Below are positions 13,669 to 58,190 of a stretch of DNA of 64,000 nucleotides, in pieces (positions within the stretch are counted from its first letter, which is position 1; each line of letters opens with the position of its first letter). The notes beneath the pieces are model-generated. The model was not told the origin of the DNA. It made no database searches and saw nothing but the letters and a program-made list of their open reading frames with translations. The DNA comes from Octopus vulgaris (lineage: Eukaryota): NCBI GenBank assembly GCA_951406725.2, contig OX597823.1, positions 43,586,001 through 43,650,000 of the forward strand, written 5' to 3'. The position numbers were made by a program, and so were the translations under genes.

Positions 13669-14244
13669 GTTTTATTATTACCCACAAGGGGCGAACATAG
13701 ATGGGACAATACAATCGGGAAAAATGAATAATGAATTATGAAGTTTGTACAATGTGATGTAATGCCCACTCGATCCACGAAATCGAGCGGTTACATTTCG
13801 TCATTTGTTTTTTATTCGTCAACAATATTTTCCAAATAAAACATTTTACACATTTTCAACATACATTTCAAAAATTTTACAAAGTTCAACATTTTTCTTT
13901 CTTCAGAATTTAAAGTTCTTTTTATCATTTCCAAATTAAAGTTTTCACAATACCTTTTCTTTTATATATACTCCATTATCTCTACCAAATCTTGGTAAAT
14001 TTCCATCGTTCGTGGCCACCTTGTAAGTCGGCATTTCATATGTTTTGTCACGTACTTGACAGCTGCCTCGATGAACGCCTCAGCGTCGTTCTCGTGGACG
14101 AGTGCACCTGTTTCTTTCCATTCGGTGCCCATCCTGACCCACGTATATCCATTTGTAACGTTTATTAAATCTTCCATCTCCTCACAGTGCCTGTGATGGA
14201 TCAACGTTCCATAGTATTTGAATTTTCTATTCGTACCTACGTTT
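13669..14244 (-). mobile_element. 3' part of a divergent A-like ORF1-only element (A2); unit 9
   Basis: C-terminal peptide HCEEMEDL...EIMEYI aligns with family A FCPEMKDL...TMIEYV. It has the A-type 3'UTR hairpin (ctcgat..atcgag) and the shared terminus. Confidence 0.8.
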
Positions 14245-19632: not shown

Positions 19633-21285
19633 AATTTCTTTATTACCCACCAGGGGCTACGAAGAATGGCGGACATAACAAAACATGGGGGACATAGAAC
19701 AATATGATTAAATTTATGAGCAAATGAATATTAAAATGAAAGCGATGCTAACGGCCCCCTCCGCTAGCATCACTTACCTGTCCTTTTGTTTTCACTGTCT
19801 CCTGAATGTTCATTCCCAATACGAAGACCATCCATATCCATTCTTACTCCGAAACTGTCCTCCATATATTCCACGAATTCATCGCTCATTCTTGTATCTT
19901 TCACCTCCCAATTCTCCCTTTCACACCTCAACACAAACTCATCTATATTCTTCTTTTCCAGCACTGTATATCTGGTCCCATCCATTTCATACCATTCATA
20001 CTCCTCCATTATCCTTTTAACTTCTTTCTGTTCAGTCACAATATAAATGTTCGGCCTGGGTTCGTTTTCAAACTCTTGTCTGTGTGTATTTTTCTTTTCT
20101 TTTCTTGTTGGAGGGGAGCGGGTGGGTTCACTGTCTGCAGCGGAAGGGTGGGATTCAGAGGGTGCGGGTGGGTTGGGGCTTCGCACAGTTTTTCTTTTTC
20201 TTTCTTTTTCTCTTTTCTTCCTTCTTCCCACTCTTGTTGCATCTCCTCTTCTATCGTTTCTTTTTCCCTTTGGTTCTCTTTGGTTTCTTCCTCTTTTGGA
20301 GCTTCCGCGACGATTTCCTTTTCTTTTTCCTTTGGTGGGGGAGGGCAGTAGGCTCTTATGTGACCCCTTTGGCCACACTTGTAGCACCTGGGCGCCCTAC
20401 CCTCCACCCACACTCTCATAATAATATTTCCAGTTTTTATACTGTCCGTAAGCTTTTCTATAACTTCCGCCTCCGTCTGTATGTTCATTACTAGTGTGGC
20501 ACCTCTCACGCCTTCATATTTCATAATGGCGTGGAGGATGTCCACTTTATCTTCATTTCCTTTGATAACCGCAGCCGTTATTAATTCGCCCTCTAGGTGT
20601 GGAGGTATTCCTTCCACCCTAATTCTGGTGGTCCTTCTATTCAAATACGAGGGGAACAAGTAAAACTTTTCTGTACTCACCACCTTGGCTGCTATATTCC
20701 TGGCTGCTTTCTCACTTTTAAATTGTACCGTTATGGTTCCATATTGTAATCCTTTTGTCATGTACACAATTTCTTCTGTCTGTTTGAAAGCCTCTTCAAT
20801 TGCTTCCATGTTAATCACTTCCATTTTTCTACCTCCATTCAGAAATACTTTATATTTAATGGTTCTACGATGGAACCAGTCTCCGCGCCCTGCTAGAGGC
20901 AACAGCTCAACCTCACCGTTCTCCTCCTCCTTCATGAACTCCTGGAAGTCCGTCAACTTAGCCAGGTCTATCTCTTTTTCTGTTGACTTCTTCGTTATAC
21001 CTGCATAGGTGCTTTCCATTTTTTTCACCGCCAACTCCTCCTCAGATGTCGACGAAATTTCAGAGAAATTTCTCCCTTGCATCTCATCCGTTTGGTAGAG
21101 GCGGCTCATAGTCGCCTCAGACCGAAAAACGGCCTCCCGAACCGAATAAGTGCAACGCGCAGAACCAGTGAAACGCGAAACCGCATCAACGACGCTCAAA
21201 ATTTCACCACAACAACCACAATACTTTTTGTTCTTATTTCTTTTTTAACCGAATTTTACAGAGCGCAAAAAAACACGACCGCCGA
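19633..21285 (-). mobile_element. ORF1-only element with B-type N-terminus and C-type C-terminus; unit 5
   Basis: ORF1 21109-19770 (CYKCGQRGHIRAYC...RTGK), apparently one frameshift; short 3'UTR with the shared terminus. Confidence 0.88.
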
Positions 21286-28152: not shown

Positions 28153-29823
28153 TTTCTTTATTACCCACTAGGGGCTACATAGAGGGGACGTTACAAACAT
28201 TGGGGACATGGAACATCACAATTACATATATATGAGCAAAATGGAATATGAAAATGATATATGAGAGTGATACCGACGGCCCCATCCGCCAGCATCACTT
28301 ATCTGTCCTTCTTCACCCATTTCCAATTAGTATTCCTGTTTTATCTATCACAACATTCGTTTTTCTTTTAGCCCTCTCTATCCATTCCTCTTTCATTTCC
28401 ACTGACTTCCAACACACACCCTCTTCCTCAAACCTTGTCGCCAATATACCCGTATCATCACTATCCACAGCCGTGTAGCTCCAATCTTCGTGTTCGTACC
28501 ACTTGGTTAACACCAGTTTTTTAACGTTTTGTATGTCTTTCCCATGTATAACACATAAAAAATGGGTCTTGGGACTTTCTTTGCTCTGTGTGTCTGTTTT
28601 TATTTTTCTTGTAGGCGGGGAGTGGGTGGAATTACTGTTTGCAGGGGAAGGATGGGACTCCAAGGGTATGGGTGGTGTCGGGGTGGGTTGGGGCTTCGCA
28701 CAGTTTTTCTTTTTCTTTCTTTTTCTCTTTGTTCCCCCTTCTTTCCACTCTTGTTGCATCTCCTCTTCTTCTGTCGTTTCCCTCTCTGTTTGTTTCTGTT
28801 TATTTTCTTCCTCTCTTGAGGCTTCCTCAACGCTTTCCTTTTCTTTTTCCTTTGGTGGGGGAGGGCAGTAGGCTCTTATGTGACCCCTTTGGCCACACTT
28901 GTAGCACCTGGGCGCCCTACCCTCCACCCACACTCTCATAATAATATTTCCAGTTTTTATGCTGTCCGTAATCCTCTCTATAACATCCGCCTCCGTTTGA
29001 ATGTTCATAACTAGTGTGGCACCTCTCACGCCTTCATACTTCATAATGGCGTGGAGGATGTACACTTTATCTTCATTTCCTTTTATAACCGCAGCCGTTA
29101 TTAATTCGCCCTCTAGGTGTGGAGGTATTCCCTCCACCCTAATTCTGGTTGTCCGCCTATTCAGATACGAGGGTAACAAGTAAATCTTTTCTGTACTCAC
29201 CACCTTGGCTGCTACATTCCTGGCTGCTTTTTCACTTTTAAATTGCACCGTTACGGTTCCGTATTGTAATCCTTTTGTCATGTACACAATTTCCTCTCCT
29301 GTCTGCTTGAGAGCCTCTTCAATTGCTTCCATGTTAATTACTTCCATCTTTCTACCTCCATTCATAAATACTTTATATTTAATGGTTCTACGATGGAACC
29401 AGTCTCCGCACCCTACTGGATGCAGCAGCTCAACTTCACCGTTCTCGTCCTCCTTCACAAACTCCTGGAGGCCCGCCAACTTCGCCAGGTCTATCTCTCT
29501 TTCCGTTGACTTCTTCGTTACACCTGCGTAGGTGCCTTCCATCTTTTTCACCACCACCAACTCCTCCTCAGATGTCGATACTTCCGTCGAAATTTCAGAG
29601 TAAATTCTCCCTTCCATCTCCTCCGCTTGATGGAGGCGGCTCATAGTCGCCTCAGACCGAAAAACGGCCTCCCGAACCGAAAAAGTGCAACGCGCAGAAC
29701 CAGTGAGACGCGAAACCGCATCAACTATGTTCAAAACTTTACAACAACAACCATTCACTTTTTGTTCTTTTTTCTTTTTACCGAATTTTACAGAGCGCAA
29801 AAAAACACGACCGTTCAATCTGA
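28153..29823 (-). mobile_element. ORF1-only element, family B; unit 2
   Basis: One intact ORF plus the shared 3' module. Confidence 0.9.
28313..29644 (-). CDS. Intact gag-like ORF1 protein (443 aa from the ATG), RRM-like region plus CCHC knuckle
   Basis: MSRLHQ...YAGVT...YGTVTVQF...CYKCGQRGHIRAYC, a K/E-rich linker and a distinct C-terminal domain; uninterrupted. Confidence 0.85.
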   Translation of the reverse strand: MSRLHQAEEMEGRIYSEISTEVSTSEEELVVVKKMEGTYAGVTKKSTEREIDLAKLAGLQEFVKEDENGEVELLHPVGCGDWFHRRTIKYKVFMNGGRKMEVINMEAIEEALKQTGEEIVYMTKGLQYGTVTVQFKSEKAARNVAAKVVSTEKIYLLPSYLNRRTTRIRVEGIPPHLEGELITAAVIKGNEDKVYILHAIMKYEGVRGATLVMNIQTEADVIERITDSIKTGNIIMRVWVEGRAPRCYKCGQRGHIRAYCPPPPKEKEKESVEEASREEENKQKQTERETTEEEEMQQEWKEGGTKRKRKKKKNCAKPQPTPTPPIPLESHPSPANSNSTHSPPTRKIKTDTQSKESPKTHFLCVIHGKDIQNVKKLVLTKWYEHEDWSYTAVDSDDTGILATRFEEEGVCWKSVEMKEEWIERAKRKTNVVIDKTGILIGNG

Positions 29824-31566
29824 TTTCTTTATTACCCACTAAGGGGCTACGAAGAATGGCGGACATAACAAAACATGGGGACATAGAACATTATAATTAA
29901 ACTTTATGAAAATGAATTGTTAAACGAAAAAATGATAAAATGAAAGCGATACCAACGGCCCCGTCCGTCAGCATCACTTACCTGTCCTTTGTTTTTCATA
30001 GTCACTTGAATGTTCTTTGCCAATACGAATAAATTCCATATCCATTCTTACTCCGAAATACTCATTCATATTTTCCACGAATTCATCGCTCATTCTTATA
30101 TCTTTCACCTCCCAATTCTCCCTTTCACACCTCCCCATAAACTCACCTATGTTCTTCTTTTCAATCACAGCATACCTAGTCTCTCCAACATCATACCATT
30201 TATACTCTTCCATTAGACTTTTAACTTCCCTCTGTTCAGTCATAGTACAAATGTACGGCCTGGGTTCGATTTCAATCTCTTGTGTGTGTGTATTCTTTTT
30301 TTTTCTTTTGTTTTCTTGTTGGGGGGGAGCGGGTGGGTTCAATGTCTGCATGGATAGGGTGGGACTCAGAGGGTGTGGGTGGTTTTGGGGTAGATTGGAG
30401 TTCCATATTATTTTCTTTTCCACGTATTCTTCTCTTCCTCTTACTTCCAGCTTCCTTCCATTTCTGTGTATTCTCTTCCTCTGTTTCCTTCTCCTCTGGT
30501 TTCTGCTTCTCTCTCTCTGGTTCGGAATCCATTTCTTTCCCTGGGGGAGGGCAGAAGGCTCTTTTGTGACCCCTCAGGCCACACTTGTAACAACGTGGAG
30601 CCCTGCCCTCCACCCACACTCTCATGATCACGTCTCCCAGTCTGATGCTTTCCGTCAGGTCCACCAGCACCTCGGTCTCCGCCTGTACGCTCAGCTCCAC
30701 CGCTACGCCTCTCCAGCCCTCGGACCTAACCGAGGCATGGAGAACATCCACCTCGTCCTCGCGGCCGCCGATCACAGCCGCCACAATCCACTCTGCCTCC
30801 ACGCCCGGTGGCACTCCCTCCACCCTCACTCGTGCAATCCTCCTGTTTAAATACGTAGGTAATAGGGTTACCTTTTCTGACTTCACCGCCTTCGCCGCCA
30901 TCTTCCTCGCTGCAGACTCAGTTTTGAAATGCACAACTACGGTACCGTACTTGGATCCTCGAGTCAGAAAATTTATTTCCTCCTCAGTTCTTCGCAGGGC
31001 TTCCTCTATCCATTCCATGGTTACAACTTCTACCCTCTTCTTTTCGTTTGCGAACACCCTGTAAATAATGGTCCTCTTATCATACCATTCTTTTCTCCTG
31101 GGTGTCGGTGATAGTTCCACCTCACCGCTTTCCTTTTTCATGTATTTCTGGTAACTTGCCAACTTGGCCATGTCGACCCCTTTCTCTTCCGCCTTCTTGG
31201 TTACACCGGCATAGGTATAACCCAGCTTCTCTTCCAAGTTCCTTGCTGCCATTTCTAGCTCCTTCTCAGACGTAGGCAGGTCTGATAAAGACTCGAAAAC
31301 TCCAGCCTTTTCTTCCATCAGCTTCATTGCAATTGCCTGTTCCAGTTCCTCATCTGTCGTGGACAAGTCTGTTAGAGACTCATAGTCCATTTCCTTTCTG
31401 TCTGACAGACCGAAAACGGCCGCCAAAACAGAAAAAGTGTAACGCGCTGAACGAGCGAAAGGCGAAACCGCGTCAACGCCGTTCAGAATTTCCACAAAAA
31501 CAACAACGCTTTTTGTTCTTTTTTACCGAATTTTACAGAGCGCAAAAAAACACGACCGTTCAATCT
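29824..31566 (-). mobile_element. ORF1-only element, family C; unit 1 (5'-most of array 1)
   Basis: ORF1 31390-29974 (CYKCGLRGHKRAFC...RTGK) with one frameshift near 30420. Confidence 0.9.
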
Positions 31567-40054: not shown

Positions 40055-43000
40055 TTATGTGGTGTCATCCATTCTCAACTTCCGTGCTACATCCTTCCAT
40101 CGTTCTTCATACACTCTTTTAGTCAGGCATTTTCTCTCCAGCCCTATCTTCCTTTTCAGGTGGTAGATGAAGTAATTCATCAACCCAGGGCCGGATATGA
40201 ACTTGCCTGACCGTGTACCTTTCATTCTCGTCTTCCATATCACCTCTTTCGCAATTGCTACCACAACGAGAAAACAATTCTTACCTTCTTTCGCGAGGAA
40301 ATCTGGTGGGTCAATTTTTTTAATACACTCAGTCGACAGCTGTACTCTTCGTGTGCTTGACAACAGCTGTTCGGCATAAACCCACACCTCAGACACGACC
40401 GAACAATGAACAATAGCGTGCGGGACGGTTTCCCTATCCCGCCCGCATCTTGGACACATCGGACTGTCCCGGCCACCGTGCCTTGCGAGTTTATCCCGAA
40501 CAGGTAGAGCTCCTCTGTAGCATTGCCATGCCAGAGACTTCTGGAAGTTGTCCAGTGTCTTCGGCTCGAACGTACGTCGGAACAGACTGGCCAGCTGATT
40601 ATCGTCGAGACCCAGGGTTTCCCCCAAGGTGTCTTCACATTTCGCCTCTACCAACCCTCTATAGAAGAATGTGGTGGAACCCCCACCGCAGGCGTTGCCC
40701 GAGCGACGGAATAGCAGGAGAGCCTTGCGACACTCCGTATGCCATGTACCGGGTTTCGATCTACGATTCGGCCAGGTTTTCCGTCCACCGAAACTAGTGA
40801 ACTTGGGAAACATCAGTTTTGCTAACGGAGACCACACCCGTTCACCATCCAGGTAGAGCCACAGATGTCTTAACCTCAGCGCATGTCTGCGCATCATCAG
40901 CCAAGGCATCCCTAGCCCACCCTTTAACGGTTGTTGACAGCAAGTAGAGCGTTTCACAAGTGGTTTCCCGCCCTTCCACAGGAAGTAGAAGAGCTGTCTT
41001 TCCAACTTGGTCAACCACGAATCGGGGCATGGAACGACGGAAAGGCGGTAGGTGATAACCGATGCGATAAACACATTGGCCACCTCCGCCCTCCCTTTCA
41101 AGGATAGCCACCGCCAAGACCAGGTCTTGGCTACTGCAGCCACCTTGCTCGTTACCTCGCCCCAATTCTTCTCTATTTGGAGGTCTGGACCGAACCAGAC
41201 CCCTAGCAGTTTAATCGGACCCTCCGTCCAACGTCCCACGACGCTGTCAGGAGGCATCGACTTGCCTCTCCAGGTGCCGAGTTGCAAGCCGACTGACTTT
41301 TCGCGATTAACTTTTGCTCCTGTCACCGTCTCGTAATCCTCTATGGCCTTGCCTACTTTACATAGGTGGTCCATTTCGGTCACGATGATGGTGATGTCGT
41401 CCGCGTACGCTGACACTGATTTTCCATTACCTGGCTGTCTCGGGATGCCGCTCAGTTTTCGCAGTAATGGCTCAAGAGCCATCACGTACAAAAGCGGGGA
41501 GAGCGGACACCCTTGACGAACCGAGCGTTTGATTTTGAACGGCTTCGACAAGAAGCCGTTCACCCGAACTACCGAGTCGATGTTGTCGTAAATTTGGATA
41601 ATCCACCTGAGGAAGCCAAGGCTCAGCCCGAACTGTGCCAGGGCAGACACCAGGTAACGATGGTCGACCCTATCAAAAGCTTTGGATTGGTCTAAATGGA
41701 CCAGTGCCCCACCCTTGCCAGAATCACTATTAAACCCCTCTATAGTGTACCGCATTAGATGGAGATTATCCTGAATGGTTCTGCCCGGAACGGCACATGT
41801 CTGTGCCTCCCCGATCAGACCATCCGCGACACGCGCCAATCTTTTCGATAACACTTTGGCCAAAATCTTCAACTCTGTGTTTAGCAGAGTGATGGGCCTG
41901 AAATTATCAATGCACTCCCCCTTGCTCGGGTCCTTTCTGACGAGAGTCACCACTCCCCGGCGCACAGATCTGGGTATAAGCCCGTTCTGCTGCCAGTTCG
42001 CATAGACCTCCGCCAGTAGGTGCCCGAACAAGTCTGGCATACTCTTGTATAACTCGTAGGGTAGACCATCCAAACCCGGCGCCTTGCCCGCGCCGCAGTC
42101 CGCCATTGCCTCCACCACCTCCTCAGGCGTGATTGGCCCTTCACAGCCCTCCGCATCTCGCCCCGATAAGCGCGGCAGCCCGTCGAGTAGGTCCGTAAAG
42201 GCCCTCCTCCTATCCAGCCCGCCGCACTCACCGAAAAGCTGAGCGAAGTGCTCCTGAAAGGCCTCACACATCTCCCCGGGTTCGTTTATCAACTCACCTT
42301 GTTGGTTCTTCAAAGATCGAATCGTGGCGTCGTTGCCATTCCGGGCTTCCACCACTCGGGCCCATCTCACGGCGTTGATTCCTTCACATCCCATATGACG
42401 GATTCTAGCCCTGACAATGCAGCCCATGTGTTTGGCCTCGAGGTGCTGGTTTAACACCAGTCTCTTGGACGCCACCTGAGCCGCAGAGCCAGTTTTCATG
42501 GCTTCCTCTAATTCCTTAACTAGAGTAGTTTCCCTTCTAGCCTCTCTAGACACTACTCCTATGCTATATCTAATAGACTCAAACTTGATGGCTCGTTTGA
42601 GGGCGTACCACCATTTGTTATTAATGATGGCACCAGACAGTGCCCTCTGAATTATGGTCCTAATCCGGTCTCTGTACTCCTTAATCGCCAAAAGGGACGT
42701 ATTAAGTTTCCAGTAACCGGATCCTCTATTTCTAACCTTATCTATGTCAAGCTTACAAGTGACCATTTTATGATCACTGTAGCTTATCGGGTGAAACTGT
42801 GGACACTTAGCTATTTTACTGTCTACCTTTCTAATTAGAATTCTATCTATGTATGACCTGGAAGATCCGTCGCTGTTTGACCATGTCCACAATGGAGCGT
42901 TCGGAAATTCCAACCTATAAGGATCTGCTAGCTCAAAGCGGCTTAGCAGTTCCAGGAAGCCTGAGTTACCTTTTCTATCTGCATTCGAGCCAACACAATC

Positions 43001-43453
43001 TACATCCGCTTTGCAAATTGTGTTAAAGTCTCCTAGCACAACTAATGAATGCGAAGTACCGAGAAAGTTTTCTAGATCACGAAAATAATCACTTTGCCCT
43101 TTTATACTGTTGGGTGCGTAAATTGCAACCAGTCTGATAACTTTACCGTTACTGAACGTCAAATCCATGACGACCAGCCTACCTTCTGGGTCTGAAAAAA
43201 TTAACTTTTTCTCAAAAACCCGGTTTCTTTTTAGTAGGACCAACACCCCACCCCCGCCTGTAGGACTGGCCGGAGAGACAAAACTCTCGTAGCCGTCAAA
43301 CAGTGGGAGTAGACCTCTTGGCCCCTTTAACCGGGTTTCTGTAGCAACAATAACATCCAAATTGCGCGACCTGATATCATTAAGGAAGCGACCTTGCTTC
43401 CCGCTTGATCCCAGGCCGCGCACATTTAAACAACCAACATAAATGTAGTCCAT
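40055..43453 (-). CDS. Intact L1/Tx1-clade ORF2p, 1132 aa: APE endonuclease, reverse transcriptase and C-terminal CCHC Zn finger
   Basis: LNVRG, ATET, GDFN, IDRI, SDH, WKLN, APGLDG, RPITLLN, DQSKAFD, QGCPLSP, YADD, GGLG and CPRCGRDRETVPHAIVHC, with no interruption. Confidence 0.96.
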   Translation of the reverse strand: MDYIYVGCLNVRGLGSSGKQGRFLNDIRSRNLDVIVATETRLKGPRGLLPLFDGYESFVSPASPTGGGGVLVLLKRNRVFEKKLIFSDPEGRLVVMDLTFSNGKVIRLVAIYAPNSIKGQSDYFRDLENFLGTSHSLVVLGDFNTICKADVDCVGSNADRKGNSGFLELLSRFELADPYRLEFPNAPLWTWSNSDGSSRSYIDRILIRKVDSKIAKCPQFHPISYSDHKMVTCKLDIDKVRNRGSGYWKLNTSLLAIKEYRDRIRTIIQRALSGAIINNKWWYALKRAIKFESIRYSIGVVSREARRETTLVKELEEAMKTGSAAQVASKRLVLNQHLEAKHMGCIVRARIRHMGCEGINAVRWARVVEARNGNDATIRSLKNQQGELINEPGEMCEAFQEHFAQLFGECGGLDRRRAFTDLLDGLPRLSGRDAEGCEGPITPEEVVEAMADCGAGKAPGLDGLPYELYKSMPDLFGHLLAEVYANWQQNGLIPRSVRRGVVTLVRKDPSKGECIDNFRPITLLNTELKILAKVLSKRLARVADGLIGEAQTCAVPGRTIQDNLHLMRYTIEGFNSDSGKGGALVHLDQSKAFDRVDHRYLVSALAQFGLSLGFLRWIIQIYDNIDSVVRVNGFLSKPFKIKRSVRQGCPLSPLLYVMALEPLLRKLSGIPRQPGNGKSVSAYADDITIIVTEMDHLCKVGKAIEDYETVTGAKVNREKSVGLQLGTWRGKSMPPDSVVGRWTEGPIKLLGVWFGPDLQIEKNWGEVTSKVAAVAKTWSWRWLSLKGRAEVANVFIASVITYRLSVVPCPDSWLTKLERQLFYFLWKGGKPLVKRSTCCQQPLKGGLGMPWLMMRRHALRLRHLWLYLDGERVWSPLAKLMFPKFTSFGGRKTWPNRRSKPGTWHTECRKALLLFRRSGNACGGGSTTFFYRGLVEAKCEDTLGETLGLDDNQLASLFRRTFEPKTLDNFQKSLAWQCYRGALPVRDKLARHGGRDSPMCPRCGRDRETVPHAIVHCSVVSEVWVYAEQLLSSTRRVQLSTECIKKIDPPDFLAKEGKNCFLVVVAIAKEVIWKTRMKGTRSGKFISGPGLMNYFIYHLKRKIGLERKCLTKRVYEERWKDVARKLRMDDTT

Positions 43454-43461
43454 CACTTACC

Positions 43462-44565
43462 TTATATCAGTGGTTTGGTTTGTTCGACTGGTTCGCCTTG
43501 TTCTTCTTCGCTTTTATTTTTTTCCCTGGCTCGTGGGGGAGTCCGACGCAGGCCCTCGTATAGATATGGAGACATGTCCAGTCTCAGAGGGCCCACGTCG
43601 TGGAAGAATTCGGATTTTATCCTCCTGTAGTCCTTCCGGCCTATTTTGTATATGATAAAGTCTTTCATTTTTCTTATTCGTTCCACCTTGGCCATGGCTG
43701 CCAACACATTGACTAGTCTGTTGTTGGTAGCCTTAATGGCCATAAATGAAGAAGTAACATCTTTTCTTTTCTTCAGGTTTTCTTCTTCTTGAGGGGTGGT
43801 TTCTGTTTTCCGTTTTTTTTTGGTAACTTTAGACCACCCCTCCTCTTTTTCGTTTTCTTTTTCCTTTTCTGCACCACTTGCTGTTTTTTCCACCTCTTTG
43901 GTTTCCTCTGTTTTCTTTTTCTTCTCCGCTTCTTCTTTTTCCGACGGTGCTTCTACCTGCGGTTTAGGTTGACACTCCGCTCTTACGTGTCCCTTTTTTC
44001 CGCAGCCGAAGCACCTCGGTTTTCTTCCTTCTACAAATACCAATACTCTCTCCTCCTCATCGAGCCTCAGCACCTCTGGTATTTCCTCCAGTGTCTGGGC
44101 CTCCGCTTGTATTGCCATTGTGATAATCTGGCCCTGCCAAAATCCCTCCTCCTCCACTGTAGCTTGGAGGATATTGATTTTTTCCTTCAGGCCCAGCATC
44201 ACTGCCGCCACCAGGCATGAGGCGTCCGCCTCTGGGGGAATATTCCTCATCACTATTTTTGAAGTCCTTCTTCCTCTGTACAAGGGTAGAAGGACTATGT
44301 TTCCTGCTTTTTGAGGTTCTGTACATAGCCTCTTTGCTATTTCTTCGGTCCTGAACCTCACTTCTACCGTTCCGAACCGTCTTCCTCTGTTTATATATGT
44401 GATGTCCTTTCTAATTGCCTTCAGGCACTCCTCTATTTTACACTCTTCCACTTTTTGTATACTTTTTGTTATCATGCTGTATGTCTTGTAAATTATTCTT
44501 TTCTTTTCAATCTCTTCCTTTTTTTCCACATCTTTTTTAACTGCAATTTCATTTCCTTCTTTTTT
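43462..44565 (-). CDS. ORF1p (partial, N-terminus missing)
   Basis: FGTVEVRF and CFGCGKKGHVRAEC. The first ~60 aa of the track ORF come from the inverted arm and are spurious. Confidence 0.8.
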   Translation of the reverse strand, partial: KKEGNEIAVKKDVEKKEEIEKKRIIYKTYSMITKSIQKVEECKIEECLKAIRKDITYINRGRRFGTVEVRFRTEEIAKRLCTEPQKAGNIVLLPLYRGRRTSKIVMRNIPPEADASCLVAAVMLGLKEKINILQATVEEEGFWQGQIITMAIQAEAQTLEEIPEVLRLDEEERVLVFVEGRKPRCFGCGKKGHVRAECQPKPQVEAPSEKEEAEKKKKTEETKEVEKTASGAEKEKENEKEEGWSKVTKKKRKTETTPQEEENLKKRKDVTSSFMAIKATNNRLVNVLAAMAKVERIRKMKDFIIYKIGRKDYRRIKSEFFHDVGPLRLDMSPYLYEGLRRTPPRAREKNKSEEEQGEPVEQTKPLI

Positions 44566-47500
44566 AGAGGAGATAAAATTGCAGTTAAAAGATAATGAAA
44601 AAGGAAAATTGAAAAGAATATTTACCAAGACATAAATTATTCTACCCTTGTACAGAGGAAGAAGGACATCAAGAAATAGAAGTAATGAATATTCCCCCAG
44701 AGACGCCTCATGCCTGGTGGCGGCTGAACTGAAAGAAAAAATCACATCCTCCAAGCTACAGTGGAGGAGGAGGGATTTTGGCAGAGATCATAACAATGGC
44801 TATACAAGCAGAGGCCCAGACTCTGAAGAAATACCAGAGGTGCTGAGGCTAGATGAGGAGGATAGTTCTAGTATTTAGAAGGAAGAAAACCGAGGTGCTT
44901 CGGCTGCGGAAAAAGGCACGTAAGAGCAGTGTCAACCGAAACCGCAGACAGAAGCACCGTCGGAGAAAGAAGAAACGGAGGAAAAAAAGGAAACCAAAGA
45001 GGTGGAAAAATCTACAGAGTTGCAAGAAAAAAAAAAAAAAAAAAGAGGAGGGGTGGTCACAGTTACCCAAAAAAAACGGAAGGCGGCTGAAACCACCCCT
45101 CAAGAAGAGAAAACCTGAAAAAGGAAAGAGGTTACTTCTTCATTTATGGCCATTAAGGCTACCAACAACAGACTTGTCAATGTGTTGGCAGCCATGGCCA
45201 AGGTGGAATAAGGAAAAAGACTTCATCATATATAAATAGGCCGGAAGGACTACAGGAGGATAAAATCCAGTTCTTCCACGACCCCTCTGAGACTGGACAT
45301 GTCTCCATATCTACGAGGGCCTACGTCGGACTCCCCCAGAGCCAAAGAAATAAAAACGTGAAGAAGAAGGCGAAAGGCTGTGTCGCCAAACTGATCGATA
45401 TAAGGTAAGTGATGAACTACATTTATGTTGGTTGTTTAAATGTGCGCGGCCTGGGATCAAGCGGGAAGCAAGGTCGCTTCCTTAATGATATCTTCAGGTC
45501 GCGCAATTTGGATGTTAATTGTTTACAGAAACCCGGTTAAAGGAGGGCCAAGAGTACTCCCACTGTTTGACGGCTAGAGTTTTTTCTCTCCTGGCAGTCC
45601 TGCAGGCGGAGAGTGGGGTGTTGGTCCTACAAAAGAGAAACCGGGTTTTTTGAGAAAGTTGGGCAATTTTTCCAGAAATTAGGCTGGTCGTCATGGATTT
45701 GACGTTCAGTAACGGTAAAGTTATCAGACTGGTTGCAATTTACGCACCCTGCAGTATAATGGGCAAAGTGATTATTATCGTGATCTAGAGAACTTTCTCG
45801 GTACTTCGCATTCAATAGTTGTGCTAGGAGACTTTAACACAATTTGCAAAGCGTGGATGTAGATTGTGTTGGCTCGAATGGATAGAAAAGGTAACTCAGG
45901 CTTCCTTGCCAAGCCGCTTGAGCTAGCAGATCCTTATAGGTTGGAATTTCCACGCTCCATTGTGGACATGGTCAAACAGCGACGGATCTTCCAGGTCATA
46001 GATAGAATTCTAATTAGAAAGGTAGACAGTAAAATAGCTAAGCGTCCACAGTTTTCATCAGCTACAGTGATCATAAAATGGTCACCTGTAAGCTTGACAT
46101 AGATAAGGTTAGTAAAGAGAGGATCAGTTACACTTCACCTCCTTTTGGCAGATTAAGGAGTACAGACCGGATTAGGACCATAATTCAGAGGGCGCTGTCT
46201 GGTGCCATCATTAATAACAAATGGTGGTACGCCCTCAAACGAGCCATCAAGTTTGAGTCTATTAGATATAGCATAGGAGTAGTGTCTAGAGAGGCTAGAA
46301 GGGTAACTACTCTAGTTAAGGAATTAGAGGAAGCCATGAAAACTGGCTCTGCGGCTCAGGTGGCGTCCAAGAGACTGGTGTTAAACCAGCACCTCGAGGC
46401 CAAACACATGGGCTGCATTGTCAGGGCTAGAATCCGTCATATGGGATGTGAAGGAATCAACGCCGTGAGATGGGCCCCGAGTGGTGGAAGCCTGGAATGG
46501 CAACGATGCCACGATTCGATCTTTGAAGAACCAACAAGGTGAGTTGATGGACGAACCCGAGGAGATGTGTGAGGCCTTTCAGGAGCACTTCGCTCAGCTT
46601 TTCGGTGAGTGCGGCGGACTGGATAGGAGGAGGGCCTTTACGGACCTACTCGACGGGCTGCCGCGCCTATCATCGGGGCGAGATGCGGAGGCTGTGAAGG
46701 GCCAATCACGCCTGAGGAGGTGGTGGAGGGCAATGGCGGACTGCGGCGACGGGCAAGGCGCCGGGTTTGGATGGTCTACCCTACGAGTTATATAAGAATA
46801 TGCCAGACTTGTTCGGGCACCTACTGGCGGAAGTCTATGCGAACTGGCAGCAGAACGGGTTGATACCCAGATCTGTGCGCCGGGGAGTGGTGACTCTCGT
46901 CAGAAAGGACCCGAGCAAGGGGGAGTGCATTGATAATTTCAGGCCCATCACTCTGCTAAACACAGAGTTGAAGATTTTGGCCAAAGTGTTATCGAAAAGA
47001 TTGGCGCGTGTCGCGGATGGTCTGATCGGGGAGGCACAGACATGTGCCGTTCCGGGCAGAACCATTCAGGATAATCTCCATCTAATGCGGTACACTATAG
47101 AGGGGGTTTAATAGTGATTCTGGCAAGGGTGGGGCACTGGTCCATTTAGACCAATCCAAAGCTTTTTGATAGGGTCGACCATCGTTACCTGGTGTCTGCT
47201 CTGGCACAGTTCGGGACTGGGCCTTGGCTTCCTCAGGTGGATTATCCAAATTTACGACAACATCGACTCGGTAGTTCTGGTGAACGGCTTCTTGTCGAAG
47301 CCGTTCAAAATCAAACGCTCGGTTCGTCAAGGGTGTCCGCTCTCCCCGCTTTTGTACGTGATGGCTCTTGAGCCATTACTGCGAAAACTGAGCGGCATCC
47401 CTGAGACAGCCAGGTAATGGAAAATCAGTGTCAGCGTACGCGGACGACATCACCATCATCGTGACCGAAATGGACCACCTATGTAAAGTAGGCAAGGCCA

Positions 47501-49046: not shown

Positions 49047-52000
49047 CCTGATAGGACGTCACTTTGACTTATTCATTGATTCTCAAAAACGAAACGTGAG
49101 TTTTTTGTCTGAAATAGTGTTGTTGAAAGTTAGTAGTTTATTGTTGCTGTGTTAATATTGTTATTTTGTGTCTTTTCAATAAGACGGTGAGTGGCCTTCG
49201 CGCGAAGGTTGTGTACGTAGTTCCCCCCCCGCGGGGGAATTATTGTGTGCCTTCGTGTACGAAACACATCCCAAAAAAAAACAAAAAAAAAAAAAAAAAA
49301 CAAAAAATATTTTCTACTAACGGCTGCAAAGCCAGAATGTCTTTGGAAGGCAGTGAATACAAACTGGAAGGAAAATTCGAAATGGATTTCCCCATTACCT
49401 ATTCACCCATTTCAGGTGATGAAGAATCTCAAACCTCGGGTGAGAGAAGCACGCCGGCGGTGACACCGGAAAAAGAATCGGCGGTAACGCCAGAACAAAA
49501 GGCCCCAACAAAGAAGTTTGCGGAAGTTGTTGGACGCAAACAGAAAGATATAGATATAGAAAACCTAGAGAAATATGAAGACCTTCTAAAGAAAGAAGGA
49601 AATGAAATTGCAGTGAAAAAAGATATGGAAAAAAAGGAAGAGATAGAAAAGAAAAGAATTATATACAAGACATACAGCACGACTACAAAAAGCATACAAA
49701 AAGTGGAAGAATGCAAAATAGAGGAGTGCCTGAAGACAATCAGAAAAGATATCACTTACATCAATAGAGGAAGACGGTTCGGAACAGTAGAAGTGAGGTT
49801 CAGAACCGAAGAAATAGCTAAGAAGCTATCCACAGAACCTCAGAAAGCGGGAAATCTAGTCCTTCTACCCTTGTACAAAGGAAGAAGGACTTCAAAGATA
49901 GTAATGAGAAATATTCCCCCAGAGGCAGACGCCTCATGCCTGGTGGCGGCAGTGATGCTGGGCCTGAAAGAAAAAATCAACATCCTCCAAGCTACAGTGG
50001 AGGAGGAGGGATTTTGGCAGGGCCAGATCATAACAATGGCTATACAAGCAGAGGCCCAGACTCCTGGAAGAAATACCAGAGGTGCTGAGGCTAGATGAGG
50101 AGGAGCGAGTTCTAGTATTTGTAGAAGGAAGAAAACCGAGGTGCTTCGGCTGCGGAAAGAAGGGGCACGTGAGAGCGGAGTGTCAACCGAAACCGCAGGC
50201 AGAAGCACCGTCGGAGAAAGAAGAAACGGAGGAAAAAAAGGAAACCAAAGAGGTGGAAAAAGCTGCAGAAAAGGAAAAAGAAAACGAAAAGAGGAGGGGT
50301 GGTCTAAAGTTACCAAAAAAACGGAAAACTGAAACCACCCCTCAAGAAGAAGAAAACCTAAAGAAAAGGAAAGAGGTTACTTCTTCATTTATGGCCATTA
50401 AGGCTACTAACAACAGACTTGTCAATGTGTTGGCAGCCATGGCCAAGGTGGAACGTATAAGGAAGATGAAAGACTTCATCATATATAAAATAGGCCGGAA
50501 GGACTACAGGAGGATAAAATCCGAGTTCTTCCACGACGTGGGCCCTCTGAGACTGGACATGTCTCCATATCTATGACGAGGGCCTACGTCGGACTCCCCC
50601 ACGAGCCAAAGAAAAAAATGAAGAAGAAGGCGAAACTGCCGAAAAAGCCAAACTACCGATATAAGGTAAGTGATGAACTACATTTATGTTGGTTGTTTAA
50701 ATGTGCGCGGCCTGGGATCAAGCGGGAAGCAAGGTCGCTTCCTTAATGATATCAGGTCGCGCAATTTGGATGTTATTGTTGCTACAGAAACCCGGTTAAA
50801 GGGGCCAAGAGATCTACTCCCACTGTTTGACGGCTACGAGAGTTTTTTCTCTCCTGGCAGTCCTGCAGGCGGGAGTGGGGTGTTGGTCCTACTAAAAAGA
50901 AACCGGGTTTTTGAGAAAAAGTTAATTTTTTCAGACCCAGAAGGTAGGCTGGTCGTCATGGATTTGACGTTCAGTAACGGTAAAGTTATCAGACTGGCTG
51001 CAATTTACGCACCCTGCAGTAATAATGGGCAAAGTGATTATTATCGTGATCTAGAGAACTTTCTCGGTACTTCGCATTCAATAGTTATGCTAGGAGACTT
51101 TAACACAATTTGCAAAGCGGATGTAGATTGTGTTGGCTCGAATGATAGAAAAGGTAACCCAGGCTTCCTGGAACTGCTAAGCCGCTTTGAGCTAGCAGAT
51201 CCTTATAGGTTGGAATTTCCGAACGCTCCATTGTGGACATGGTCAAACAGCGACGGATCTTCCAGGTCATACATAGATAGAATTCTAATTAGAAAGGTAG
51301 ACAGTAAAATAGCTAAGCGTCCACAGTTTTACCCGATCAGCTACAGTGATCATAAAATGGTCACCTGTAAGCTTGACATAGATAAGGTTAGAAAGAGAGG
51401 ATCCGGTTACTGGAAACTTAATACGTCCCTTTTGGCGATTAAGGAGTACAGAGACCGGATTAGGACCATAATTCAGAGGGCGCTGTCTGGTACCATCATT
51501 AATAACAAATGGTGGTACGCCCTCAAACGAGCCATCAAGTTTGAGTCTATTAGATATAGCATAGGAGTAGTGTCTAGAGAGGCTAGAAGGGAAACTACTC
51601 TAGTTAAGGAATTAGAGGAAGCCATGAAAACTGGCTCTGCGGCTCAGGTGGCGTCCAAGAGACTGGTGTTAAACCAGCACCTCGAGGCCAAACACATGGG
51701 CTGCATTGTCAGGGCTAGAATCCGTCATATGGGATGTGAAGGAATCAACGCCGTGAGATGGGCCCGAGTGGTGGAAGCCCGGAATGGCAACGATGCCACG
51801 ATTCGATCTTTGAAGAACCAACAAGGTGAGTTGATAGACGAACCCGAGGAGATGTGTGAGGCCTTTCAGGAGCACTTCGCTCAGCTTTTCGGTGAGTGCG
51901 GCGGACTGGATAGGAGGAGGGCCTTTACGGACCTACTCGACGGGCTGCCGCGCCTATCGGGGCGAGATGCGGAGGGCTGTGAAGGGCCAATCACGCCTGA

Positions 52001-54345
52001 GGAGGTGGTGGAGGCAATGGCGGACTGCGGCGCGGGCAAGGCGCCGGGTTTGGATGGTCTACCCTACGAGTTATATAAGAATATGCCAGACTTGTTCGGG
52101 CACCTACTGGCGGAAGTCTATGCGAACTGGCAGCAGAACGGGTTGATACCCAGATCTGTGCGCCGGGGAGTGGTGACTCTCGTCAGAAAGGACCCGAGCA
52201 AGGGGGAGTGCATTGATAATTTCAGGCCCATCACTCTGCTAAACACAGAGTTGAAGATTTTGGCCAAAGTGTTATCGAAAAGATTGGCGCGTGTCGCGGA
52301 TGGTCTGATCGGGGAGGCACAGACATGTGCCGTTCCGGGCAGAACCATTCAGGATAATCTCCATCTAATGCGGTACACTATAGAGGGGTTTAATAGTGAT
52401 TCTGGCAAGGGTGGGGCACTGGTCCATTTAGACCAATCCAAAGCTTTTGATAGGGTCGACCATCGTTACCTGGTGTCTGCTCTGGCACAGTTCGGACTGG
52501 GCCTTGGCTTCCTCAGGTGGATTATCCAAATTTACGACAACATCGACTCGGTAGTTCGGGTGAACGGCTTCTTGTCGAAGCCGTTCAAAATCAAACGCTC
52601 GGTTCGTCAAGGGTGTCCGCTCTCCCCGCTTTTGTACGTGATGGCTCTTGAGCCATTACTGCGAAAACTGAGCGGCATCCCGAGACAGCCAGGTAATGGA
52701 AAATCAGTGTCAGCGTACGCGGACGACATCACCATCATCGTGACCGAAATGGACCACCTATGTAAAGTAGGCAAGGCCATAGAGGATTACGAGACGGTGA
52801 CAGGAGCAAAAGTTAATCGCGAAAAGTCAGTCGGCTTGCAACTCGGCACCTGGAGAGGCAAGTCGATGCCTCCTGACAGCGTCGTGGGACGTTGGACGGA
52901 GGGTCCGATTAAACTGCTAGGGGTCTGGTTCGGTCCAGACCTCCAAATAGAGAAGAATTGGGGCGAGGTAACGAGCAAGGTGGCTGCAGTAGCCAAGACC
53001 TGGTCTAGGCGGTGGCTATCCCTTGAAAGGGAGGGCGGAGGTGGCCAATGTGTTTATCGCATCGGTTATCATCTACCGCCTTTCCGTCGTTCCATGCCCT
53101 GATTCGTGGTTGACCAAGTTGGAAAGACAGCTCTTCTACTTCCTTGTGGAAGGGCAGGAAACCACTTGTGAAACGCTCTACTTGCTGTCAACAACCGTTA
53201 AAGGGTGGGCTAGGGATGCCTTGGCTGATGATGCGCAGACATGCGCTGAGGTTAAGACATCTGTGGCTCTACCTGGATGGTGAACGGGTGTGGTCTTCTC
53301 CGTTAGCAAAACTGATGTTTCCCAAGTTCACTAGTTTCGGTGGATGGGAAACCTGGTTGAATCGTAGATCGAAACTCGGTACATGGTATACGGAGTGTCG
53401 AAAGGCCCTCCTGCTATTCCGGTCGCTCGGGCAACGCTCGTGGGGGTTCCTGCGGTGGGGTTCCACCACATTCTTCTATAGAGGGTTGGTGGTAGAGGCG
53501 GAATGTGAAGACACCTTGGGAGAAACCCTGGGTCTCGACGATAATCAGCTGGCTAGTCTGTTCCGACGTACGTTCGAGCCGAAGACTCTGGACAACTCCA
53601 GAAGTCTCTGACATGGCAATGCTACAGAGGAGCTCTACCTGTTCGGGATAAACTCGCAAGGCACGGTGGCCAAGACAGTCCGATGTGTCCAAGATGCGGG
53701 CGGGATAGGGAAACCGTCCAGCACGCTGTTGTTCATTGTTCGGACGTGTCTGAGGTGTGGGTTTATGCCGAACAGCTGTTGTCAAGCACACGAAGAGTAC
53801 AGCTGTCGACTGGAGTGTATTAAAAAAATTGACCCACCAGATTTCCTCGCGAAAGAAGGTAAGACTTGTTTTCTCGTTGTGGTAGCAATTGCGAAGGAGG
53901 TGATATGGAAGACGAGAATGAGGTAACACGGTCAGGCAAGTTCATATCCGGCCCTGGGTTGATGAATTACTTCATCTTACCACCTGAAAAGGAAGATAGG
54001 GCTGAAAGACCTGAAAATGCCTGACTAAAAGAGTGTATGAAGAACGATGGAAGGATGTAGCACGGAAGTTGAGAATGAATGACACCACATAAATGTAGAT
54101 CAAAACGAAACCAAAAGTATCAGTGGTGAGGCGGGGCTCGTGGGGTCCGAGCTGAACCCGCCCCCACTCCACCTGTAGTGTCTTCCGGTCTGTTTTTTTC
54201 ATTCGATTTTTATAATTTTTGCAATTTTTGTAAATTTTTGAAATTTTTAAACTCATTCTTTTGTAACCTCATACGTGAATCTGACCCCACATCAGGTTGT
54301 ATTGTCCCCTCTTTTGTTGGCCCCTTGTGGGTAATAATAAAACAC
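49047..54345 (+). mobile_element. Full-length Tx1 element (type E4); unit 14
   Basis: 5'UTR, ORF1 49337/49382-50664, ORF2 50673-54092 and 3'UTR. Confidence 0.95.
50673..54092 (+). pseudogene. ORF2, open through the EN and RT domains, frameshifted after ~53020
   Basis: 810-aa ORF with YADD, followed by collinear fragments. Confidence 0.9.
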
Positions 54346-54361
54346 CCGATAGGACGTTACT

Positions 54362-54412
54362 CCCCGATTGTATTGTCCCCTCTATGTGGCCCCTAGTGGG
54401 TAATAAAGAAAT
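54362..54412 (+). mobile_element. 51-bp 5'-truncated insertion of a family A 3' end; unit 15
   Basis: Matches 56143-56193 with one mismatch; flanked by perfect ccgataggacgttact repeats. Confidence 0.88.
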
Positions 54413-56194
54413 CCGATAGGACGTTACTTCTATGCGTGTTGTTATCTGTGACTAGACGTTGAAATTTTGTTGTGTAAAGTGATTAATATCGCGCGAGGCA
54501 TTTGCCTCCACGTTTGGAAACCTTCCGAAGAAGGTGAATTGACCCTCTAGTCATGGCGACTTACGCGGGGGTCACGGGAAAGAATAATAATGATTCGGCA
54601 ATAATCGTGAAGGATGTTTTCTTTGAGAAGAGTAAACTCAAAGAATATGAAAAACTATTCAAAAGGGAGGGTGATAGCGTGAAGCTAATCCCCCCGCGAA
54701 AGCAAAAGAGGACAAAGAAAACAAAACTGTAACGTATAGAACCCAGGACAAAAGTACAAAGAAACTGGCAAGAGTGGAGATAGCAGAGATCGAAAAATGT
54801 CTGGGAGACATAATGGATAAATCGACCTACGTGAGTAGAGGAAAAAATTTGGTACGGTGGAGGTGAGATGTGCAACGGAAGAAATTGCAGCCTCACTGGC
54901 TACCACTGTTCTAAGAGCGGAAACATTTATAATGTGGCCCTCATACAAGGGAAGAAGAGGGGTCCGGGTTAAAATCCCGAATATACCCCCAGAAGTAAAA
55001 ACAGAATGGCTGGCAACAGCTATTCTAGGAGCAGCAGAAGAGGAAGTGGAGGTGGAATCCTTTAAGGAGTCCAACGCAGTAAATTGGAGAGGATATGGGG
55101 TAGAACTGTGTTTGATGGCCACAAAAGAGGACATTGAAAGGTTCCCTATAGAATAGAAATCGAAGACGAGAAAACCCTCAGTGTAATTGTAGAGGGAAGA
55201 AAACCAAACTGTTACTTGTGTGGGACAAGGGGGCACATTAAAAAAGAGTGCCCGTTATACGAATTCGTAGCGGAGTGCGAGCAGGAACTTGAAGAAAAGA
55301 AGAATACTGTAAATGAAAAAGAAAACATAGAAAAGGAAACAAAACAACAAGAGAAAGGAAATAATAAGTCAACGAAGGAAAAAGAAATAAAAGAAAAGAA
55401 AGAAATAGAACCAAAACAGAGTCAGGAAAAGAAAAAGGAAAAAGAAACAACAGGAAAAAAACAAGAGAGAGATCAGAACCAAACGAAAAGAAAAGACGGC
55501 ACACAAAAAGAAAAAGAAAAGGAACATAAAACACGAGAGAAAGATAGAACAGACAAAGAACCAAAAAGACAAGAGAAGGAAGAAGAAAGAAAAGAAAAAA
55601 AGAGAGAAAGAGAGAAACAAAGAGAGGAGAACAAGGAAGAAGTAAGCCCGAAAAGGAAAACGAGAGAAAACGTAGGACGGAAACAAGATTACTACTACTA
55701 CAAGTTAATAACCTTCCATTTCTGCCCTGAAATGAAAGACTTGACATGGAATATGGAGGGACATATATGGTCAACAGGATGACTGATCAGTGGCAGGAGA
55801 CTGCTCTGATCCCCGAAGAAAGAGTCGCTGAGTTCCTCAGAGCAGCTGGAGAGAGTGTAATATTTCACACGAAGGTTCGAGTAAGAGAGCGGCCGCCTGA
55901 GGGCTCAGTGATTGACTTTAGAGAATTGAAAGCTATTATGGAATACGTATAAAATTGTGAGAAGAGAGAGAAGAAAGAAGAGAAAATAGAAAATTATTGT
56001 GAAATATATGTGACGAAAATGTAACCTCTCGATTCCGGGGATCGAGTGGGCATTTGCATCTCATTGTAAATATTCTTTCATTTGTCATTTTTTTTTTTTT
56101 TTTTTTTTCCTTTTCTTGTCATTCGCTTTCTTATTTTAAGTTCCCCGATTGTATTGTCCCCTCTATGTGGCCCCTAGTGGGCAATAAAGAAATA
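54413..56194 (+). mobile_element. ORF1-only element, family A; unit 16
   Basis: ORF1 54553-55952, frameshifted; shared terminus. Confidence 0.9.
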
Positions 56195-58008
56195 CTGATA
56201 GGAGGTTTGGTTCGGTAGGAACACGTGTCGGAAATCTATGCGTGTTGTTATCTGTGACTTGACGGTGAAATTTTTTCTGTGTAAATTGATTTGATATCGC
56301 GCGAGGCGTTTGCCTCCACGTGTGGAAACCTTCCGAAGAAGGTGAATTGACCCTCTAGTCATGGCGACTTACGCGGGGGTAACCGGGAAAAATAACGATT
56401 CGTCGATAATCATAAAGGAGGTTTTCTTTGAGAAGGATAAACTCAAAGAATATGAAAAGTTTTTCAAAAGGGAGGGTGATAGCGTGAAGCTAATCCCCCC
56501 CCCCGCGAAAGCAAAAGAGGATAAAGAAAGCAAGACAGTGACATACAGAACCCAAGACAAAAATACGAAGAAACTGGCAAGAGTGGAGATAGCCGAAATT
56601 GAAAAATGTCTGGGAGACATAATGGGGAAAATAACCTACGTGAGTAGAGGCAAGAAATTTGGTACGGTGGAGGTGAGATATGCAACGGAAGAAATTGCGA
56701 CCTCACTGGCTACCACCGTACTAAGAGCCGAAAAATTCACAATGTGGCCCTCATACAAGGGAAGAAGAGGGGTCCGGGTTAAAATCCCGAATATACCCCC
56801 AGAAGTGAAAACAGAATGGCTGGCAACAGCTATTCTAGGAGCAGCAGCAGAGGAAGTGGAGGTGGAATCTATTAAGGAGTCCAACGCGGTAAACTGGAGA
56901 GGATATGGGGTAGAATTGTGGTTGATGGCCACAAAAGAGGATATTGAAAGGTTTCCATACAGAATTGAAATTGAAGAGGAAAAAACCCTCAGCGTAATTG
57001 TAGAGGGGAGAAAACCAAACTGTTACTTGTGTGGGACAAGGGGGCACATTAAAAAAGAGTGCCCGTTATACGAATTCGTAGTGGAGTGCGAGCAGGAACT
57101 TGAAGAAAAGAAGAATACTGTAAATGAGAAAGAAAACATAGAAAAGGAAACAAAACAACAAGAGAAAGGAAATAATAAGTCAATGAAGGAAAAACAAATA
57201 AAAGAAAAGAAAGAAATAGAACCAAAACAGAGTCAGGAAAAAAAAGGAAAAAGAAACAATAAGAAAAAAACAAGAGAGGGATCAGAATCAAACGAAAAGA
57301 AAAGACGGCACACAAAAGGAAAAAGAAAAGGAACATAAAACACGAGAGAAAGAGAGAACAGAGAAAGAACCAAAAAGACAAGAGAAGGAAGGAGAAAGAA
57401 AAGAAGACAAAAAGAGAGAAAGAGAGAAACAAAGAGAGGAGAACAAGGAAGAAATAAGCCCGAAAAGGAAAATGAAGGAAAACGTAGGACGGAAACAAGA
57501 TTACTATTACTACAAGTTAGTAACCTTCCATTTCTGCCCTGAAATGAAAGACTTGACATGTAAAACGGAGGGACATATATGGGTCAACAGGATGACCGAT
57601 CGGTGGCAGGAGACTGCTCTAATCCCCGAAGAAAGAGTCGCTGAGTTCCTCAGAGCTGCCGGAGAGAGTGTAATATTTTACACGAAGGTTCGAATGAGAG
57701 AGCGGCTGCCTGAGGGCTCAGTGATAGACTTCAGAGAAGTGGAAACTATGATAGAATACGTATAGAATTGTGAGAAGAAAAAAAAAGAAAAAAAAAGAGA
57801 AAAAAGAAAATTTTGTGAAATATATGTGACGAAAATGTAGCCTCTCGATTCCGGGGATCGAGTGGGCATTTACATCTCATTGTAAATATTCTTTCATATG
57901 TCATTTTTACTTTTATTTTTTCCTTTTCTTGTCATTCGCTTTCTTATTTTAAGTTCCCCGATTGTATTGTCCCATCTATGTTCGCCCCTAGTGGGTAATA
58001 AAGAAATA
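56195..58008 (+). mobile_element. ORF1-only element, family A; unit 17
   Basis: ORF1 56361-57765 with one apparent frameshift in an A-run near 57240. Confidence 0.92.
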
Positions 58009-58190
58009 CCGATAGGATGTTACTTATTCATCGATACTCAAAAACTGAACTTTCACCAACTGAATACTCGTCATGTAGTGCCTTACTGCTTTCTGCTGGA
58101 TTTTACCTCGAGAAAGGAACCCTGAGGAAGGAGGGCTGAATTTCGAATACTTCGTACAAAAAACGGCTGCAGGTTAGGAAAAAAAATTAA
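58009..58190 (+). mobile_element. 5'UTR remnant of an E3/E4-like element terminating array 3
   Basis: gatactcaaaaactgaacttt matches the 5' end of unit 12 (reverse complement of 39786-39806). Confidence 0.65.

Follow-up and report, generated by a model that had tools for sequence, protein, structure and literature searches.

A long-range loop pairing and a terminal hairpin in the 3′UTRs of octopus L1/Tx1-type retroelements: a possible two-tier module for ORF2p recognition

Why should otherwise dissimilar retroelement 3′UTRs share a hairpin with a G-rich loop and a complementary C-tract just before the element end? The question was raised by a 64,000-nt stretch of Octopus vulgaris DNA (the whole of it is called the window here), whose content is head-to-tail retroelement units on both strands, with L1/Tx1-type LINEs and ORF1-only partners clustered together. 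An earlier note had proposed that loop and tract pair as a pseudoknot or kissing interaction, and that this pairing is the ORF2p recognition signal which licenses the partner elements. The pairing itself is backed by cross-lineage covariation; the licensing role is not supported in the form proposed.

In family E, ORF1 is accompanied by ORF2, whose domains are APE endonuclease, RT and zf-RVT. The ORF2 stop codon of E (54090-54092) was placed by comparison with a 1133-aa frame at 40055-43456 on the minus strand, for which a domain search returned Exo_endo_phos, RVT_1 and zf-RVT and whose nearest solved structure was human L1 ORF2p (E 2.5e-68). The closest named relative of family E ORF2 was from Argonauta (53-64% identity), and no labelled Tx1 protein stood among the relatives listed in the protein searches with ORF2. 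Families A and B are units of ~1.7-1.8 kb with ORF1 alone. In the domain search zf-CCHC exceeded the cut-off in family A ORF1, and a CCHC motif was visible in the translations of E and B ORF1. A CCHC zinc knuckle in ORF1 is typical of Tx1. The combination of APE, RT and a C-terminal zinc domain in ORF2 with a CCHC ORF1 would place these elements as L1/Tx1-type LINEs, the Tx1 label being read from architecture. The ORF1-only partners are multi-copy, with ORF1 present and ORF2 absent, and target-site duplications of 16-18 nt flank several truncated copies. 3′UTRs appear to be swapped between elements as modules. The features are collected in Table 1.

Table 1. Positions of the retroelement features in the window, with the autonomous loci that have no G-loop
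Feature	Position	Strand	Remark
ORF2 of family E (APE endonuclease, RT, zf-RVT)	50670..54092	+	interrupted in window copy
E 3′UTR hairpin	54122..54168	+	outer stems, inner stem 54136-54140/54148-54152, G-rich loop 54141-54147
E spacer	54171..54276	+	52% T, weakly folded; would be looped out by the long-range helix
E partner hairpin	54278..54298	+	7-bp stem, -4.4 kcal/mol; C-tract in loop 54285-54291, putative kissing partner
Near-invariant single-stranded motif TGTCCCCTCT (hinge)	54303..54312	+	common to LINEs, ORF1-only partners and SINE
E terminal hairpin, 4 bp	54320..54332	+	covarying across lineages; best candidate ORF2p signal, jointly with hinge
AATAA-rich element end	54333..54344	+	no poly(A) tract after
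A-type 3′ fragment, ~65 nt (C-tract, hinge, terminal hairpin)	54361..54425	+	sits between two units
Family A ORF1-only unit (zinc knuckle ORF1, no ORF2)	56235..58021	+	second copy 54429-56207
A hairpin	57844..57862	+	loop 57850-57856
A partner tract CCCCG	57956..57960	+	
A terminal hairpin	57984..57996	+	
B3 3′UTR	29835..29964	-	loop ACGGGG from 29964, partner CCCCAT from 29880, fixed C-A mismatch at pair 5
B1 3′UTR	28163..28285	-	loop ATGGGG, partner CCCCA; another B1 copy with loop at 26599
B2 3′UTR	19645..19760	-	loop AGGGGG, partner CCCCC
D-type 3′UTR (unit 9)	13680..13781	-	private G-to-T change in loop
G-loop-less autonomous loci	L179, L180, L182, L197, L204, L220, L275; L251, L256, L257; L300, L303; L308		

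Element ends usually lie directly before the 5′ region of another element, and young array junctions often start ACAT. Long arrays of a single family occur elsewhere in the same genome: an A array (C7:100088719-100126149) with at least 21 hairpins among the matches listed at ~1.78 kb spacing, and a tandem array of family E (C27:32.95-32.99 Mb) at ~5.3 kb spacing. At 44500-44640 of the window the minus-strand and plus-strand arrays meet inverted within ORF1-like sequence, and both E copies are cut there. Unit 9 (13675-16890, minus strand) is an E2-type ORF1 with part of the endonuclease fused to a D-type 3′UTR, and the unit ending near 16900 has an E-type 3′UTR attached to a partial ORF1. At loci L181-L310, ORF1-only elements form many deep clades apart from the autonomous ORF1.

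The hairpin with its downstream C-tract was found in all complete 3′UTRs of the window (14/14), as had been claimed for every family; the tail match at 54389, the 15th, belongs to a 3′ fragment of ~65 nt. The coordinates previously given for family E (GTGGGGTC at 54140-54147, GACCCCAC at 54283-54290) and family A (CGGGG at 57852-57856, CCCCG at 57956-57960) were exact. The 8-nt match described for E has its positions right, but its first G belongs to the stem, which leaves 7 nt in the loop; pairing over all 7-8 bp requires opening of the partner stem. Unit 1 does keep only 4 bp, as reported, but it is no stray: the whole B3 subfamily has this state (40/100 among the matches listed of 487), with the C-A mismatch at pair 5 in 13/13 distinct B3 copies examined. 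Unit 9, described as degenerate, has an odd loop through a private mutation, seen once among the matches listed (100 of 150); the loop of its family reads TTCGGGG. The G-C variant of the fifth pair is consistent across copies: a pattern excluding A at the fifth position gave 55/55 matches with C there, and the matching GGGGG loop was present in 25/27 fetched copies with an intact hairpin. In contigs of four sequencing runs, no change at loop or partner was seen among the matches listed, 14 rows lying outside the listing, and this observation is given no weight here. When the downstream UTR was shuffled, a perfect loop complement arose in 19/20,000 cases for E and 364/20,000 for A. Estimates that leave out pseudoknot loop terms gave a helix gain of -12.0 against a cost of +4.4 kcal/mol for freeing both strands in E, and -8.2 against +5.5 kcal/mol in A. 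Nested folding of the E 3′UTR alone was unremarkable (z +0.44) and gives no signal; support for the E pairing comes from covariation.

Copies inside one family are near-identical and their comparison shows no covariation; therefore only comparison between lineages is informative. The check proposed in the earlier note, covariation across many copies, thus gave a positive answer between lineages and would mislead within a family. Other lineages were sampled with tail patterns from which loop and partner were absent; these matched 685 and 327 times, and 70 and 70 were fetched out of 100 listed each. The full sample comprised 54 clusters with 222 distinct 3′ ends outside the SINE, all from one genome. 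New loop/partner pairs were AGTGGGG/CCCCACT, TGTGGGG/CCCCACA, GGGGCCAA/TTGGCCCC, TGGGGC/GCCCCA, ATGGGG/CCCCAT, TCGGGG/CCCCGA, TGAGG/CCTCA and GTGGG/CCCAC, some of them known from single copies (L186, L187, L203, L205). Pairs 5, 6 and 7 show double changes, as does the opposite side of the G-run and, in one case, its interior; the compensatory changes earlier described for the fifth pair are real, but they fall at five or six positions rather than at the fifth alone.

Three tests were applied. In a rule-based test, permuted pairing reached the cognate value in 168 and 299 of 100,000 draws (p about 0.002; here and in the other two tests kinship among lineages inflates the result, and permutation p-values overstate independence). 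The detection rule admitted 26/56 cluster representatives, the 30 left out being truncated copies, G-loop-less lineages and detection failures. The hinge C-tract was rejected as the partner of the loop, since this control gave 41,446 of 100,000 (p 0.41). In 32 hand-picked rows from 16 lineages, with two mis-anchored rows left in, the longest Watson-Crick helix averaged 5.69 bp for cognate pairs versus 4.63 bp between lineages. With one row per lineage, helix length gave a median p of 0.0005 (the test floor) and a worst of 0.0065, and the energy measure a median of 0.003 and a worst of 0.057. The third test counted pairs on a MAFFT alignment in which the E, F, L186 and H rows were out of register: 5/7 pairs had changes on both sides, and the covariation score was 0.164 versus 0.094 shuffled (0/500) and at most 0.109 when slid. 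In an ORF1 tree (33/36 rows) ORF1-only families fall in several deep clades apart from E, so the pairing changes are spread over distinct lineages. Taken from these comparisons, the long-range pairing appears to be real and old. That it has no function, an inherited G-run and C-run from one ancestor being flanked by chance matches, is very improbable: the four core pairs hardly vary, TGTCCCC-like words abound in the genome and the nested-fold z-score of E is unremarkable, but several flanking and core positions have changed in pairs, and the swap tests and the null control tract likewise speak against it.

The geometry differs by family, and the alternative of pseudoknot or kissing was correct for each in turn: kissing in E, and in B and others a pseudoknot with an open strand. 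The E partner lies within the loop of its own 7-bp hairpin in 38/39 copies. A 5-bp kissing contact is predicted, at a cost of only 1.2 kcal/mol to expose the partner; in the predicted 7-bp form the partner stem must open. The partner is open in B (0/55 with a local hairpin) and in the AGTGGGG family (0/19), giving a predicted H-type knot, and in the TGTGGGG family a local stem competes in 13/15; the script that scored partner hairpins missed families A and D. The U-rich spacer, about 55-170 nt, varies about threefold in length, and the partner stays near the invariant tail motif. The module is kept in ORF1-only clades that lie deeply apart in the ORF1 tree, and also in autonomous lineages whose ORF2 identity falls as low as about 45-50%. 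By their ORF1 sequences, the ORF1-only elements would represent an old radiation of non-autonomous coding partners.

The terminal hairpin said to follow the C-tract was present in E and covaries across lineages (16 lineages, median p 0.001), with the variants GCCC/GGGY, TGGC/GCCA, TGCC/GGCA, AACT/GGTT and TGATT/AATCA. It occurs in a SINE and in lineages without the G-loop. TGTCC was invariant in a 29-row tail alignment, this word being in the selecting pattern for most rows. A long terminal stem pairing the TGTCC motif with the final GGG, favoured by MFE, was rejected because it carried no cognate signal (median p 0.82). A known ribozyme or Rfam family was likewise dropped as the identity of the 3′UTRs: none was matched by Rfam at E up to 5, self-cleaving ribozymes included, and 0/46 window matches reached the gathering score. 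Among TSD-flanked truncations, 4/9 break inside the G-loop hairpin, one further row having been dropped as an internal duplication; 5′-truncated copies broken there are found at loci L034, L040, L195, L268 and L280. Stalling of the RT at this hairpin was rejected as an explanation, as 4/9 is too few and truncation is 3′-biased anyway; the hairpin is possibly a pause site.

The terminal motif matched 43,315 times genome-wide (control 0). Among the matches listed, 29/30 of those fetched were a short element with Pol III-like boxes (A box pattern in 23/30 and B box pattern in 27/30), and a tRNA-type SINE appears to make up most of the 43,315. The SINE carries the last ~65 nt, without the C-tract and without the G-loop hairpin, and CCCC before the hinge was found in 0/70 distinct SINE tails. 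Downstream of the SINE body, this tail stands in 72 cases and some other sequence in at least 15; the LINE-derived part is therefore limited to about 65 nt. Many copies are flanked by repeats of up to 19 nt. The SINE (loci L091-L120) is often dimeric, with a fixed internal start for the second unit. The SINE has the same terminal hairpin as family E, and no sampled G-loop-less LINE lineage has that hairpin; from this E-type hairpin we infer which LINE moves the SINE, and the two probably form a pair. SINE insertion sites frequently start GGTA or AGAA, against ACAT at array junctions, and another SINE driver is therefore possible.

Several autonomous lineages with an ORF2 about 36-68% identical to that of E have the same tail and no G-loop/C-tract pair. 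A substitute A/U pairing is possible in them; in a microsatellite-flanked lineage, matches of 3-5 bp of A/U type were seen by eye in decayed copies. A related autonomous lineage (L179, L180, L182, L197, L275) ends straight in (CTAT)n repeats, which suggests a microsatellite target or a repeat tail. An ORF1-only family with a G-less loop was dropped as a counter-example, L157 being a single copy.

We favour, at a probability of roughly 45%, a 3′ module with two tiers. The terminal tier would be the last ~55-65 nt, with the single-stranded TGTCC(C)CTCT motif, the covarying 4-6 bp hairpin and the AATAA-rich end; ORF2p would bind it to begin target-primed reverse transcription, and as the minimal signal it would be carried by everything the LINE group mobilises. 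The second tier would be a stable hairpin just 3′ of the last stop codon, whose G-rich loop forms 4-8 bp with a C-tract that lies 5-25 nt ahead of the terminal tier. This pairing would be a kissing of two loops in E and an H-type pseudoknot in families with an open partner strand; it would loop out the U-rich spacer (about 55-170 nt) and dock the hairpin beside the terminal tier. There it would most likely offer ORF2p a second contact, through which long protein-coding RNAs, autonomous and ORF1-only alike, would be better captured or positioned as templates; it would not be strictly required. The sequences, their covariation and their distribution are shown directly, and folding in vivo and any contact with protein belong to the proposal. 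Several observations favour it. Cognate pairing beats swapped pairing and the neighbouring C-tract control does not; the partner stays by the invariant motif despite a roughly threefold range of spacer lengths; the terminal hairpin, which covaries, is also present in the SINE and the G-loop-less lineages; the module is kept across deep ORF1-only clades and divergent autonomous lineages; the helix gain exceeds the cost of freeing the strands in E and A; and, in the accessible text on A-clade R2, the same order of parts binds protein (10.1101/2024.11.11.623112). Against it, the mismatched B3 (pair 5) and A (pair 6) subfamilies have both expanded, the full helix is predicted to compete with the local partner hairpin in E and H, and a role in the mRNA would predict the same distribution.

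Such a role, which we consider somewhat unlikely although it is the strongest of the alternatives, would have the long-range helix act on the mRNA and not on ORF2p, compacting the 3′UTR for protection against 3′ decay, as an aid to translation or 3′ processing, or for ORF1p loading. Coding partners would keep the helix and a Pol III SINE lack it because it acts on mRNA, which fits the split between coding elements and SINE. The hairpin begins no more than about 20-80 nt past the last stop codon, inserted copies have no poly(A) and the spacer is rich in U, all in keeping with this role. However, several autonomous coding lineages have no G-loop, and a partner strand held beside the invariant motif agrees better with a joint binding surface than with a general stabiliser.

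The pseudoknot as an essential ORF2p signal licensing every partner is improbable. The knot is indeed present in 14/14 complete units of the window and in most of the sampled coding clusters with multiple copies, and the available text on R2 reports that disrupting its pseudoknot sharply lowers insertion (10.1101/2024.11.11.623112). But the commonest user of the tail, the SINE (29/30 fetched terminal-motif matches), has neither C-tract (0/70) nor G-loop hairpin. The SINE could depend on an unsampled knot-less LINE hidden among SINE-like tails, but it has the same terminal hairpin as E, which is absent from the sampled G-loop-less LINE lineages, and a search for LINE-type context on a SINE-type tail gave only 6 matches, by pattern alone, in one pattern search. 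The licence is also opposed by the G-loop-less autonomous lineages and by the mismatches fixed in successful young subfamilies, at pair 5 in B3 and pair 6 in A.

Pairing between two RNA molecules, a kissing dimer gathering partner RNAs in one particle and favouring the template jumps that build head-to-tail arrays, is still less probable by a wide distance. The near-universal GGGG/CCCC core does permit 4-5 bp of cross-pairing (mean 4.6 bp between lineages), and mixed arrays, short 3′ fragments and long same-family arrays are all found. But the covariation fits each element's own tract rather than the autonomous E tract, repeated insertion at a preferred site also yields arrays, and cis pairing is favoured by concentration.

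What L1-clade elements are chiefly known for is a relaxed choice of template that relies on poly(A). A tail that is structured, lacks poly(A) and contains a long-range knot points to a possible route to stringent recognition in this clade, and if the terminal tier suffices, an APE-type LINE would have a signal of ~60 nt. The genome offers natural compensatory variants and, in the SINE, a natural deletion control; competition between ORF1-only partners and SINE for ORF2p in trans is therefore directly testable. Tentatively, and at rather less than even odds, an L1/Tx1 APE-type LINE may have independently reached an R2-like order of pseudoknot, hinge and stem, long-range and switching between kissing and open forms, with ORF1-only partners keeping the knot to win ORF2p in trans and the SINE needing the terminal hairpin alone.

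In searches of the open-licence literature, no account of a 3′ pseudoknot in an L1/Tx1 element was found. The available text of an octopod repeat annotation reports recently active L1-Tx1 families and abundant SINEs (PMC13282606) as counts alone, with no 3′ structure, ORF1-only partners or SINE-LINE pairing in that part. Stringent stem-loop recognition is, by the accessible accounts, established for L2-clade LINEs (PMC4176376), and it is proposed for one plant L1 lineage (PMC3747384). As in UnaL2 and ZfL2-1/2-2 (PMC4176376, PMC1636434, PMC3747384), a short 3′ tail with a covarying stem-loop is common to LINE and partners; those are L2-clade single stem-loops, with no long-range loop pairing described in the text available, whereas the octopus clade is of L1/Tx1 type. 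HAL1 (half-L1) elements, as far as the accessible text goes, are ORF1-only, non-autonomous L1 derivatives and resemble the octopus partners in having ORF1p as sole product (PMC5753468). Mammalian L1 partners depend on poly(A), according to the part of the review available (PMC3747384); unlike HAL1, the octopus partners share a structured tail without poly(A) and form many deep clades. The closest likeness is to A-clade R2 of birds and turtles, whose 3′UTR is described in the available text as pseudoknot-hinge-stem with the pairing proven by compensatory mutation (10.1101/2024.11.11.623112). Like it, the octopus module has a pseudoknot, then a short conserved single strand, then a 3′ stem, and the fold is kept while the primary sequence diverges. 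R2, by the same account, has a single ORF, a restriction-like endonuclease, N-terminal zinc fingers, a module of ~65 nt and the hinge GGAAAAG. In contrast, the octopus element is APE-type with two ORFs, a 55-170 nt spacer and a pyrimidine-rich hinge, the protein features of R2 are absent, and its knot appears dispensable for a SINE. The octopus element is not an R2, and the likeness is analogy rather than homology.
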